NCBI RefSeq assembly: GCF_003334385.1
Contig: NZ_QOWN01000001.1
Reading direction: 5' to 3' (one strand)
Length of the DNA: 64,000 nucleotides
DNA from: Escherichia coli
GTDB lineage: Bacteria; Pseudomonadota; Gammaproteobacteria; Enterobacterales; Enterobacteriaceae
Positions 2,465-57,880 of this stretch are shown here, piece after piece. The notes under the pieces were generated by a model. The model made no database searches and had not been told where the DNA came from. It saw nothing but the letters and a program-made list of their open reading frames with translations. Position numbers and translations under genes: made by a program. The first letter of the stretch is position 1; the number at the start of each line of letters is the position of its first letter.

Positions 2465-2578
2465 CCCCTCACCCTAACCCTCTCCCCAGAGGGGCGAGGG
2501 GACCGACCGAGCGCCTTTTTGACTCTGTACACGGTTAACACTTTGCCGGATGCGGCGTGAACGCCTGATCCGGCCTAC
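2465..2578. repeat. Intergenic repeat cluster: GC-rich imperfect palindrome plus REP element
   Basis: 2465-2503 cccctcaccctaaccctctccccagaggggcgaggggacc (imperfect palindrome, boxC-like); 2545-2578 gccggatgcggcgtgaacgcctgatccggcctac, a typical REP consensus. Confidence 0.7.
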
Positions 2579-2589
2579 GGTAAGCCTGA

Positions 2590-3402
<813 letters not shown>

Positions 3403-27265: not shown

Positions 27266-28669
27266 GTGTCACTTTCGCTTTGGCAGCAGTGTCTTGCCCG
27301 ATTGCAGGATGAGTTACCAGCCACAGAATTCAGTATGTGGATACGCCCATTGCAGGCGGAACTGAGCGATAACACGCTGGCCCTGTACGCGCCAAACCGT
27401 TTTGTCCTCGATTGGGTACGGGACAAGTACCTTAATAATATCAATGGACTGCTAACCAGTTTCTGCGGAGCGGATGCCCCACAGCTGCGTTTTGAAGTCG
27501 GCACCAAACCGGTGACGCAAACGCCACAAGCGGCAGTGACGAGCAACGTCGCGGCCCCTGCACAGGTGGCGCAAACGCAGCCGCAACGTGCTGCGCCTTC
27601 TACGCGCTCAGGTTGGGATAACGTCCCGGCCCCGGCAGAACCGACCTATCGTTCTAACGTAAACGTCAAACACACGTTTGATAACTTCGTTGAAGGTAAA
27701 TCTAACCAACTGGCGCGCGCGGCGGCTCGCCAGGTGGCGGATAACCCTGGCGGTGCCTATAACCCGTTGTTCCTTTATGGCGGCACGGGTCTGGGTAAAA
27801 CTCACCTGCTGCATGCGGTGGGTAACGGCATTATGGCGCGCAAGCCGAATGCCAAAGTGGTTTATATGCACTCCGAGCGCTTTGTTCAGGACATGGTTAA
27901 AGCCCTGCAAAACAACGCGATCGAAGAGTTTAAACGCTACTACCGTTCCGTAGATGCACTGCTGATCGACGATATTCAGTTTTTTGCTAATAAAGAACGA
28001 TCTCAGGAAGAGTTTTTCCACACCTTCAACGCCCTGCTGGAAGGTAATCAACAGATCATTCTCACCTCGGATCGCTATCCGAAAGAGATCAACGGCGTTG
28101 AGGATCGTTTGAAATCCCGCTTCGGTTGGGGACTGACTGTGGCGATCGAACCGCCAGAGCTGGAAACCCGTGTGGCGATCCTGATGAAAAAGGCCGACGA
28201 AAACGACATTCGTTTGCCGGGCGAAGTGGCGTTCTTTATCGCCAAGCGTCTACGATCTAACGTACGTGAGCTGGAAGGGGCGCTGAACCGCGTCATTGCC
28301 AATGCCAACTTTACCGGACGGGCGATCACCATCGACTTCGTGCGTGAGGCGCTGCGCGACTTGCTGGCATTGCAGGAAAAACTGGTCACCATCGACAATA
28401 TTCAGAAGACGGTGGCGGAGTACTACAAGATCAAAGTCGCGGATCTCCTTTCCAAGCGTCGATCCCGCTCGGTGGCGCGTCCGCGCCAGATGGCGATGGC
28501 GCTGGCGAAAGAGCTGACTAACCACAGTCTGCCGGAGATTGGCGATGCGTTTGGTGGCCGTGACCACACGACGGTGCTTCATGCCTGCCGTAAGATCGAG
28601 CAGTTGCGTGAAGAGAGCCACGATATCAAAGAAGATTTTTCAAATTTAATCAGAACATTGTCATCGTAA
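27266..28669 (+). CDS. dnaA: Chromosomal replication initiator DnaA
   Basis: 467 aa from GTG at 27266 ([16 protein letters not shown]...); AAA+ Walker [11 protein letters not shown] and C-terminal DNA-binding domain. Confidence 0.95.
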
Positions 28670-29774: not shown

Positions 29775-33290
<3,516 letters not shown>

Positions 33291-33311
33291 TGGCGCTAAC
33301 CATGCGAGCGT

Positions 33312-33410
33312 GCCTGATGCGCTACGCTTATCAGGCCTACGAAAATCTTGCAATGTATTGAATTTTCATGATTTTGTAGGCCGGATAAGGCGTTCACGCC
33401 GCATCCGGCA
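33312..33410. repeat. BIME: two inverted REP elements downstream of gyrB
   Basis: 33312-33340 gcctgatgcgctacgcttatcaggcctac and 33376-33410 gtaggccggataaggcgttcacgccgcatccggca in opposite orientation. Confidence 0.8.
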
Positions 33411-33422
33411 AGAAGCTATAAG

Positions 33423-33457
33423 AAAAGGGCGGAGATCATCTCCGCCCTTTTTATTTC
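33423..33457. terminator. Intrinsic terminator hairpin (bidirectional)
   Basis: aaaagggcggagatcatctccgcccttttt: perfect stem flanked by A-run and T-run. Confidence 0.75.
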
Positions 33458-33529
33458 TGCAATCCGCAATTATCATCCCGCAAATCTATACTTTTTGGGT
33501 CAACACGTAACGCTTTACAGGTGATTATC

Positions 33530-33928
33530 ATGGGGCTTTTTGATGAAGTTGTCGGTGCCTTTCTGAAAGGCGATGCGGGGAAATATCAGGCTATTTTAAG
33601 TTGGGTTGAGGAGCAGGGCGGCATTCAGGTGCTGCTGGAAAAACTGCAAAGTGGCGGCTTAGGGGCCATTCTCTCAACCTGGCTGAGTAATCAACAGGGC
33701 AATCAATCGGTTAGTGGCGAGCAACTGGAATCGGCGCTCGGCACAAATGCGGTGTCCGATCTCGGGCAAAAACTTGGCGTGGATACCAGTACAGCTTCCA
33801 GTTTACTGGCAGAACAATTGCCGAAGATTATTGATGCGCTCTCACCGCAAGGTGAAGTGTCACCACAAGCCAATAACGATCTGCTTTCCGCAGGCATGGA
33901 ACTGCTGAAAGGGAAACTCTTCCGCTAA
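33530..33928 (+). CDS. yidB: Uncharacterised Gly/Gln-rich protein YidB
   Basis: 132 aa from ATG at 33530 (MGLFDEVVGAFLKG...). Confidence 0.85.
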   Translation: MGLFDEVVGAFLKGDAGKYQAILSWVEEQGGIQVLLEKLQSGGLGAILSTWLSNQQGNQSVSGEQLESALGTNAVSDLGQKLGVDTSTASSLLAEQLPKIIDALSPQGEVSPQANNDLLSAGMELLKGKLFR

Positions 33929-34042
33929 GCAAAAAGGGAGCACGCAACGCGCGTTGCATCCCCCTTTTCCCTCGGGTGTTGTACTGATTTTTGAGCGGAA
34001 TCGCGTTAGCATGGGTCAGGAACCAATCTACCTGGGGAACTC

Positions 34043-34855: not shown

Positions 34856-34900
34856 TCTGTGGGCGGGCAAACAGCATAAACGCGTTTGCCCGCTTACTGA

Positions 34901-38000: not shown

Positions 38001-39145
38001 AAATCACCAAAATTACCACGTATCGTTTACCTCCCCGCTGGATGTTCCTGAAAATTGAAACCGATGAAGGCGTGGTCGGTTGGGGCGAGCCCGTGATCGA
38101 AGGCCGCGCCCGTACGGTGGAAGCGGCAGTTCACGAGCTGGGTGACTATTTGATTGGTCAGGATCCATCGCGCATCAATGACTTATGGCAAGTGATGTAT
38201 CGCGCCGGATTCTATCGCGGCGGTCCGATCCTGATGAGCGCCATCGCCGGGATTGACCAGGCGTTATGGGATATCAAAGGTAAAGTGCTGAATGCGCCGG
38301 TCTGGCAACTGATGGGCGGCCTGGTTCGCGACAAAATTAAAGCCTACAGTTGGGTTGGCGGCGATCGTCCGGCGGATGTTATCGACGGCATTAAAACGCT
38401 ACGCGAAATCGGCTTCGATACCTTCAAACTGAACGGTTGTGAAGAACTGGGGCTAATTGATAACTCCCGCGCGGTAGATGCGGCGGTTAACACCGTGGCA
38501 CAAATTCGTGAAGCTTTTGGCAATCAGATTGAGTTTGGTCTTGATTTCCACGGTCGCGTCAGCGCGCCGATGGCGAAAGTGCTGATTAAAGAACTGGAGC
38601 CGTATCGCCCGCTGTTTATTGAGGAGCCGGTGCTGGCGGAACAAGCCGAATACTACCCGAAACTGGCGGCACAAACGCATATTCCACTGGCGGCGGGTGA
38701 ACGCATGTTCTCACGCTTCGATTTTAAACGCGTGCTGGAGGCAGGTGGTATTTCGATTCTGCAACCGGATCTCTCCCACGCGGGCGGTATTACCGAATGC
38801 TACAAAATCGCCGGAATGGCAGAAGCCTATGACGTGACCCTTGCGCCGCACTGTCCGCTCGGACCGATTGCACTGGCGGCTTGCCTGCATATCGACTTTG
38901 TTTCCTATAACGCCGTACTTCAGGAACAAAGTATGGGAATTCATTACAACAAAGGCGCGGAGTTACTCGACTTTGTGAAAAACAAAGAAGACTTCAGCAT
39001 GGTCGGCGGCTTCTTTAAACCGTTAACGAAACCGGGCTTAGGCGTGGAAATCGACGAAGCTAAAGTGATTGAGTTCAGTAAAAATGCCCCGGACTGGCGT
39101 AATCCGCTCTGGCGTCATGAAGATAACAGCGTAGCAGAGTGGTAA
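37997..39145 (+). CDS. dgoD: D-galactonate dehydratase (enolase superfamily)
   Basis: 382 aa; overlaps dgoA by 4 nt. Confidence 0.93.
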
Positions 39146-43470: not shown

Positions 43471-43572
43471 TACATCGTAGCCGATGAGGACGCGCCTGAT
43501 GGGTGTTCTGGCTACCTGACCTGTCCATTGTGGAAGGTCTTACATTCTCGCTGATTTCAGGAGCTATTGATT

Positions 43573-43986
43573 ATGCGTAACTTTGATTTATCCCCGCTTT
43601 ACCGTTCTGCTATTGGATTTGACCGTTTGTTTAACCACTTAGAAAACAACCAGAGCCAGAGTAATGGCGGCTACCCTCCGTATAACGTTGAACTGGTAGA
43701 CGAAAACCATTACCGCATTGCTATCGCTGTGGCTGGTTTTGCTGAGAGCGAACTGGAAATTACCGCCCAGGATAATCTGCTGGTGGTGAAAGGTGCTCAC
43801 GCCGACGAACAAAAAGAGCGCACCTATCTGTACCAGGGCATCGCTGAACGCAACTTTGAACGCAAATTCCAGTTAGCTGAGAACATTCATGTTCGTGGTG
43901 CTAACCTGGTAAATGGTTTGCTGTATATCGATCTCGAACGCGTGATTCCGGAAGCGAAAAAACCGCGCCGTATCGAAATCAACTAA
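43573..43986 (+). CDS. ibpA: Small heat-shock protein IbpA
   Basis: 137 aa from ATG at 43573 ([20 protein letters not shown]...); alpha-crystallin domain. Confidence 0.95.
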
Positions 43987-57739: not shown

Positions 57740-57880
57740 ACTAAATACGTCAAAATTCGTGCCGAAATTGCGCGTTCTGCGCGGAACACGTATACTTTCA
57801 GTGTTGACATAATACAGTGTGCTTTGCGGTTACCAGCCGCAGGCGACTGACGAAACCTCGCTCCGGCGGGGTTTTTTGTT
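57740..57880 (+). ncRNA. istR: IstR antitoxin sRNA (IstR-2 about 140 nt; IstR-1 is the 3' roughly 75 nt from about 57805); ends approximate
   Basis: Transcribed divergently from tisAB; 57803-57829 (gttgacataatacagtgtgctttgcgg) nearly repeats 57545-57572 in the tisAB leader, making the sRNA complementary to the minus-strand mRNA; T-run at 57871-57877. Confidence 0.6.

Follow-up and report, generated by a model that had tools for sequence, protein, structure and literature searches.

A canonical BIME-1 and a predicted Rho-independent terminator make up the 3' untranslated region of gyrB in Escherichia coli

The window analysed here, a stretch of 64,000 nucleotides (nt) of Escherichia coli DNA, carries dnaA, dnaN, recF, gyrB, yidB, and yidA, all on the plus strand; the first gene on the minus strand, yidX, lies at approximately position 34900. 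The coding sequence of gyrB extends from 30876 to 33290 (+), ending in a TAA stop codon at 33288 to 33290, and yidB, the next gene in the same direction, occupies 33530 to 33928 (+), beginning 73 nt beyond the U-tract of the terminator described below; these limits follow RefSeq for K-12 records of identical sequence. The 361 bases around the element between the two genes are 100% identical to the E. coli K-12 records BW2952 and MC1061, in which gyrB and yidB are annotated on either side, and by this identity the stretch is the gyrB-yidB intergenic region of E. coli K-12, with the gyrB 3' untranslated region (UTR). A window position p corresponds to position 3910995 - p of MG1655 (NC_000913.3), a conversion that agrees with the sequence printed in a published supplement. 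The spacer itself, with its REPs and a potential (putative) terminator, is displayed in PMC7967276. Taken whole, the 186-nt region has a folding z score of -5.4.

The first element downstream of gyrB is a Y-type REP of the short form (TGCCTGATGCGCTACGCTTATCAGGCCTAC; 33311 to 33340, +), which folds at -15.0 kcal/mol and ends in the CTAC "tail." Counted from the stop codon, the first base predicted to pair is 18 nt away and the REP proper 21 nt away. The window has a single match to the Y pattern (33312 to 33340, +), against 0.00 matches expected in shuffled sequences. The Y REP is followed by the 35-nt L linker of a BIME-1 (GAAAATCTTGCAATGTATTGAATTTTCATGATTTT; 33341 to 33375, without assigned strand), which is recognised both by alignment with other copies and by the Rfam model ES036 (33333 to 33375, -; 44.8 bits, the gathering score being 37.6). 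Beyond the linker lies a Z1-type REP (GTAGGCCGGATAAGGCGTTCACGCCGCATCCGGCA; 33376 to 33410, -), the plus strand of which begins with GTAG and which is inverted relative to the Y REP (tail-to-tail). The Z1 consensus GCCGGATGCGGCGTNNACGCCTTATCCGGCCTAC matches positions 33376 to 33409 (-) with 0 mismatches and has 2 matches in the window, against 0.00 expected from 100 shuffles. This REP folds at -20.9 kcal/mol on the plus strand and at -21.3 kcal/mol on the minus strand, and its internal palindrome was found by a repeat search, as were the inverted arms that link the two REPs (33327 to 33344 with 33372 to 33389, and 33311 to 33321 with 33400 to 33410).

The attributes that define REPs are all present: GTAG at 33376 to 33379 and its complement CTAC at 33337 to 33340, imperfect palindromes capable of folding, and a high copy number, with a REP-containing query finding at least 11 places in each of 5426 complete E. 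coli genomes (median of at least 40 among the matches listed). The element is a single, extragenic Y-L-Z1 unit between the gyrB stop and the yidB start, without a tandem array, and it is separated from the hairpin beyond it by a spacer (AGAAGCTATAAG; 33411 to 33422, +) unlike the TAAACAAAGCGCAC flank that follows the Z1 REP in four other copies. The earlier note had proposed a BIME here, made of two REPs in inverted orientation; the Y and Z1 consensus matches and the inverted arms bear out the arrangement at the coordinates given there, and the consensus matches, the alignment, and ES036 identify the element more specifically as a BIME-1.

Within the L linker, an IHF-like core (ATTCAATACATTG; 33351 to 33363, -) differs by 1 mismatch from the IHF core consensus WATCAANNNNTTR. 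A match with 1 mismatch occupies the identical place in all of the BIME-1 copies, against a chance expectation of 0.045 per 45 nt, and the linker DNA probably binds IHF at this predicted site. The main text of Prieto 2012 (IHF ChIP) makes no mention of REPs.

A coding interpretation of the open reading frame that crosses this region (33310 to 33510, 66 amino acids) was rejected. In the MC1061 record (NZ_CP169569.1), PGAP places a pseudo "hypothetical protein," with both ends missing, exactly over the BIME (312 to 410 of the retrieved sequence, equivalent to window positions 33311 to 33409, -). This feature is evidently an annotation artefact stemming from REP-derived entries in protein databases.

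According to PMC3333891 (Ton-Hoang et al. 2012, summarising Bachellier/Gilson), BIME-1 elements pair a y REP with an inversely oriented z1 REP, occur in single copy, and have a long, well-conserved linker L in which an IHF site is frequent. Five other copies, retrieved by BLAST with the linker consensus, served for comparison (dtpD-phrB, chbG-katE, metJ-yiiX, paeA-msrA, and avtA-ysaA). The gyrB copy aligns with all five over a common linker of 34 to 35 nt, with the invariant core TGCAATnTATTGAATTT, and over the Z1 REP; a near-identical short Y is present in 4 of the 5, the Y of dtpD-phrB being longer. At stringent E values in a 28-Gb database, the linker consensus has a median of 20 occurrences per E. 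coli genome, and approximately 31 in K-12. By the identity and order of its parts, the repeat beside gyrB is thus an ordinary, canonical single-copy BIME-1 (also termed RIP or RIB). The Rfam model behaves accordingly: all BIME-1 copies tested have an ES036 match in their L linker, as does the gyrB locus of Escherichia albertii, and no match occurs in the allele that lacks the BIME or in Kluyvera. This "CssrF sRNA" model therefore recognises the repeat linker and not a specific gene.

Several further repeats were encountered during this comparison. The flank TAAACAAAGCGCAC lies approximately 25 nt past the Z1 REP in 4 of the 5 other BIME-1 copies, and this conserved sequence may be one of the outer BIME motifs. 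A scan of 200 kb more of MG1655 sequence found no further Y-L-Z1 unit with a 35-nt linker, only a BIME-2-like tandem cluster (fre-fadA) and one degenerate copy. The latter, in the spf-yihA spacer (MG1655 approximately 4,050,020 to 4,050,140; 39020 to 39140 of the scanned segment), is BIME-1-like: its Y REP is short, its core (TGTAATCTATTGAATTT) resembles that of L, and its Z REP is truncated. Another REP pair within the window (2545 to 2610), a Z1 with 1 mismatch and then a short inverted palindrome resembling a Y, is found just upstream of an open reading frame that starts at approximately 2626, which by position places it in the pstA-pstB spacer; its short linker indicates that it is not a BIME-1. 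A preference of gyrase has been documented for BIME-2; BIME-1 goes unmentioned in the Topo-seq paper.

Twelve bases past the Z1 REP is a hairpin (AAAAGGGCGGAGAT-C-ATCTCCGCCCTTTT, then TATTT; 33423 to 33451, +), whose 14-nt arms (33423 to 33436 and 33438 to 33451) are 100% complementary and were returned by the repeat search as a perfect palindrome. In its core stem of 9 bp (7 G-C and 2 A-U), GGGCGGAGA (33427 to 33435) pairs with TCTCCGCCC (33439 to 33447) around a UCA loop (33436 to 33438), such that the core reads GGGCGGAGA-UCA-UCUCCGCCC and directly abuts a U-tract, UUUUUAUUU, with 8 U in 9 nt (33448 to 33456, +). An extension of 4 A:U pairs joins AAAA (33423 to 33426) to UUUU (33448 to 33451). 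The hairpin folds at -23.3 kcal/mol with a z score of -7.0, and 0 of 200 shuffled sequences fold as well.

In our own terminator scan, in which only the sequence upstream of each T-tract was folded, this was the only compact GC-rich hairpin abutting a U-tract on the plus strand between 26500 and 35000 (dnaA to yidB). A consensus terminator scan of the window did not list it, which we ascribe to a greedy stem rule that takes in the pairs between A-tract and U-tract (14 pairs) and leaves too few T residues in the tail, and a full-text literature search with the hairpin sequence yielded no match. By sequence criteria, the BIME is followed by a strong Rho-independent terminator, in keeping with the earlier proposal of a perfect hairpin terminator after the REPs, which is upheld by the 14-nt arms, the fold energy, and the adjacent U-tract. 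The 3' end of the gyrB transcript is accordingly predicted at approximately 3,877,539 to 3,877,547 of MG1655, minus strand.

A second palindrome, composed of an A-tract, a GC hairpin, and a T-tract, occupies positions 33935 to 33975, in the interval from the yidB stop (33928) to the yidA start (34043). It is terminator-like on the minus strand in both scans (tail UUUUUGCUU); its tail on the plus strand is TTTTCCC.

The two parts of the 3' UTR differ in their conservation. Among the 5426 complete genomes, the allele with the BIME was recovered over at least 80% of the query in 4603 (~85%), and an allele without the BIME occurs in 861 (~16%), where the terminator is retained. Between TAATGGC and GGGCGGAG, the BIME-less allele has an unrelated 41-nt filler (GCTTTTTGTTGCTGATAAAATGACTTAGTCGTCAGTCC) in place of 137 nt; this filler is single-copy in the genomes (for example, E. 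coli CUVET20-PYO4, 692 to 735 of the retrieved sequence). The hairpin core, the U-tract, and the region upstream of yidB are kept in 5424 of the 5426 genomes. That the terminator persists when the BIME is absent suggests that the former is a constrained 3'-end signal and that the latter is dispensable.

Beyond these genomes, the hairpin core is conserved in E. albertii and in the cryptic Escherichia clades, as it is in E. coli strains with and without the BIME. Variants of the stem involve G:U wobbles (ETEC4067, KY1497, and "E69") or one mismatch (E. albertii), and no compensatory double changes were seen among the variants examined. The BIME, with the same flanks, is present in E. albertii, in Escherichia sp. 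E1V33, and in the divergent "E. coli E69," indicating that the element is older than E. coli. The BIME-less allele is probably a later replacement, as judged from E. albertii and the cryptic clades; the genome scan with YidB gave 8 loci, none of them from Salmonella or Escherichia fergusonii. Kluyvera has no BIME after gyrB and carries a different intrinsic terminator (AAAACGCCUGAAucuUUCAGGCGUUUU plus U9) at the equivalent place, so that a terminator after gyrB is conserved by position and not by sequence.

Two genomes have additional changes in this spacer. E. coli KY 1497 (NZ_AP019803.1, 1750 to 2470 of the retrieved sequence) contains a copy of IS200C, with tnpA annotated, right past the U-tract of the gyrB terminator; the left junction is CGCCCTTTTTATT followed by GTGCACAG, the host sequence resumes at TTATTTCTGCAATCC, and the gap between terminator and yidB is approximately 700 bp. 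In Escherichia whittamii (~980 to 1500 of the retrieved sequence), no gyrB 3' end was found within 520 nt upstream of yidB, which is preceded by an AT-rich stretch with a degraded hairpin (AACGGCGGAGAACATCTGTACC), suggesting an insertion or rearrangement between gyrB and yidB.

With respect to the transcript that reaches this region, PMC8359277 describes gyrB as a transcription unit in its own right, with a supercoiling-sensitive (relaxation-stimulated) promoter. In view of this promoter, the assignment of this 3' end to a dnaA-dnaN-recF-gyrB transcription unit, as in the earlier note, is overstated. No terminator-like site was found in the recF-gyrB spacer, which is only 28 nt long, so some read-through from recF into gyrB may occur. 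The curated Term-seq list of Adams et al. 2021, which covers three conditions, has no 3' end between 3,868,543 and 3,881,679, an interval that includes gyrB and its 3' UTR; the list is thresholded, and it neither confirms nor refutes the predicted end. The same list includes a 3' end inside dnaN (window 29316; MG1655 3,881,679, minus strand) and another, labelled "orphan," just upstream of dnaA (window 27199; MG1655 3,883,796, minus strand). Elsewhere in the window, three Rfam models score above their gathering thresholds: AsdA, the antisense RNA of dnaA mRNA (27776 to 27856, -); the ROSE_2 thermoregulator (43507 to 43579, +), in the ibpA region by position; and istR (57748 to 57877, +).

From these observations, we conclude with a probability of roughly 0.85 that the gyrB 3' UTR consists of one canonical BIME-1 and, approximately 12 nt further on, a classical Rho-independent terminator, with the BIME a passenger and the terminator setting the 3' end. 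At the level of sequence, the identities of the parts, the family membership of the repeat, the stability and uniqueness of the hairpin, and the polymorphism of the BIME with retention of the terminator are established. RNA polymerase that starts at PgyrB, and possibly at upstream promoters as well, would traverse the BIME and stop within the U-tract at approximately 33448 to 33456. The terminator hairpin would then guard the 3' end, and if it were breached, the two REP stem-loops could act as extra obstacles to 3'-to-5' exonucleases. On the DNA, the L linker would probably be bound by IHF. The BIME would be a dispensable, once-mobile passenger rather than a dedicated regulator of gyrB.

The likeliest of the alternatives is that the REPs define the stable 3' end of gyrB, with exonucleases trimming the transcript back to the REP stem-loops and the BIME stabilising the mRNA, and the earlier note had likewise described the 3' end as REP-stabilised. 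In its favour are the stability of the REP hairpins (-15.0 and -20.9 kcal/mol), the stabilising effect on mRNA that is widely ascribed to REPs (PMC3333891, introduction), and the presence of the BIME at this same site in E. albertii and the cryptic Escherichia clades, where it is conserved. The terminator hairpin, however, lies furthest 3' of the three structures and is the most stable of them (-23.3 kcal/mol), and it is therefore this hairpin, and not the REPs, that should define and protect the primary 3' end. Moreover, the 861 genomes without the BIME have kept gyrB and its terminator, Kluyvera has a terminator only, and PMC7967276 calls the roles of REPs in mRNA stability unconfirmed in general. 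A REP-defined end is thus doubtful, and its description as REP-stabilised goes further than the position and stability of the REPs and the BIME-less genomes allow. A related effect, the BIME-associated Rho-dependent attenuation of Espeli et al. 2001, is known to us as it is cited in PMC7967276.

The hairpin has also been viewed as a bidirectional terminator, which would keep antisense transcription, whether begun in the 5' region of yidB or reading in from the side of yidX, out of gyrB. Structurally, the case has some merit. The stem is flanked by AAGAAAA on its 5' side and by TTTTTATTT on its 3' side, the arrangement of A-tract and U-tract that gives it a bidirectional look; read on the minus strand, the hairpin has a folding energy of -21.7 kcal/mol and leads into a U-tract, UUUUCUUAU (ATAAGAAAA on the plus strand; 33418 to 33426), and our own fold-based scan finds the hairpin on both strands. 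In addition, PMC7967276 reports a start site in the yidB-gyrB spacer on the strand opposite to the two genes, giving an RNA antisense to the yidB 5' UTR, the expression of which is "considerable" in the supplement but weak in the main text. Against this, gyrB and yidB do not converge but lie on one strand, and because they are codirectional, the term "bidirectional" applies only to the structure and does not denote a terminator between convergent genes. No promoter-like site was found on the minus strand between 33455 and 33560, and the terminator-like hairpin on that strand at approximately 33935 to 33975 would already halt transcription reading in from the yidA/yidX side. In the BIME-less allele, furthermore, the 5' flank of the hairpin is CAGTCC instead of AAGAAAA, and the A-tract, and with it the reverse U-tract, is absent. 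The symmetry therefore belongs to the BIME allele only, and a two-way function is not conserved within the species. What stands of the bidirectional claim is the symmetry of A-tract, hairpin, and U-tract; the codirectional genes, and a weak antisense RNA as the sole candidate for a reverse transcript, make termination in both directions unlikely.

A more elaborate version of this idea is that, in lineages with the BIME, the A-tract arrived in the same replacement as BIME-1 and made the terminator a two-way stop, which together with an IHF-bent L linker would form a boundary element shielding the supercoiling-sensitive gyrB from antisense read-in and from the diffusion of supercoils from the yidB side. 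We regard this as very improbable. Were it true, the BIME-less alleles (~16% of genomes) would differ measurably in the formation of the gyrB 3' end or in gyrB expression.

The region might instead be an independent small RNA, either ES036/CssrF on the minus strand, whose score exceeds its gathering threshold of 37.6 bits, or an RNA resembling naRNA4 on the plus strand (47.1 bits, E = 1e-6). The former model hits all of the BIME-1 copies tested, in their L linker; the score of the latter (RF02564) is below its gathering threshold of 59.5 bits, and the match joins the Z1 REP to the terminator hairpin, not a Y-Z2 pair. No promoter-like site for such an RNA was found, and a literature search on ES036/CssrF returned nothing relevant. 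An independent small RNA is accordingly rejected as hardly credible. Equally implausible, and likewise rejected, is the mechanism of Liang, Rudd and Deutscher 2015, by which a stop-proximal REP would stall terminating ribosomes and lower GyrB: a REP does lie close behind the gyrB stop codon, but its distance of 18 to 21 nt is greater than the 15 nt or less that the rule demands, according to PMC7967276 and PMC12306157.

The preferred reading, a passenger BIME-1 ahead of a terminator that sets the 3' end, involves no new class of element. In MG1655, 355 REP elements are annotated (PMC4550694), and the spacer with its REPs and putative terminator was already in print (PMC7967276), such that its description here matters little. 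The feature is real, ordinary, and already known, and nothing about it is novel. Since the 1980s and 1990s, REP and BIME elements, as well as intrinsic terminators, have belonged to the textbook picture of how E. coli genes end. The value of the locus lies in its polymorphism: with the BIME present in ~85% of genomes, replaced in ~16%, and the terminator kept, it constitutes a natural experiment on the contribution of BIME-1 to the mRNA of an essential gene.

Among known systems, REP325/naRNA4, with its BIME-2-type Y-l-Z2 units (PMC4550694), resembles the gyrB region in having two adjacent hairpins, one of them a REP, and in a partial Rfam match. At gyrB, however, the second hairpin is a terminator and not a REP, and the repeat is a single BIME-1 unit without a tandem array. 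The closest known system is BIME-1 itself: the Z1 of the gyrB copy is identical to the consensus, and the order of parts, the short Y, the 35-nt L linker, and the location at the 3' end of a gene are likewise shared. The gyrB copy differs in a slightly diverged linker (ES036 score of 44.8 bits, against 75 for the best copy) and in lacking the right flank TAAACAAAGCGCAC common to four of the others.

As judged by its sequence, the hairpin has no structural difference from a canonical intrinsic terminator, both possessing a GC-rich 9-bp stem, a 3-nt loop, and an adjoining U-tract. Bidirectional intrinsic terminators between convergent genes were reportedly described by Ju et al. in 2019 with SEnd-seq, and the gyrB hairpin is like them in its symmetric A-tract, hairpin, and U-tract, but unlike them in its codirectional flanking genes and its allele-specific A-tract. 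REPs are also said to act as mRNA stabilisers in the classic work on malE-malF. As with stabilisers of that type, and with BIMEs that cause Rho-dependent attenuation, the REP stem-loops of gyrB lie in a 3' UTR between codirectional genes, but here a strong predicted intrinsic terminator is situated directly downstream, and with such a terminator in place, the 3' end of gyrB can be explained without invoking REPs as stabilisers or attenuators.
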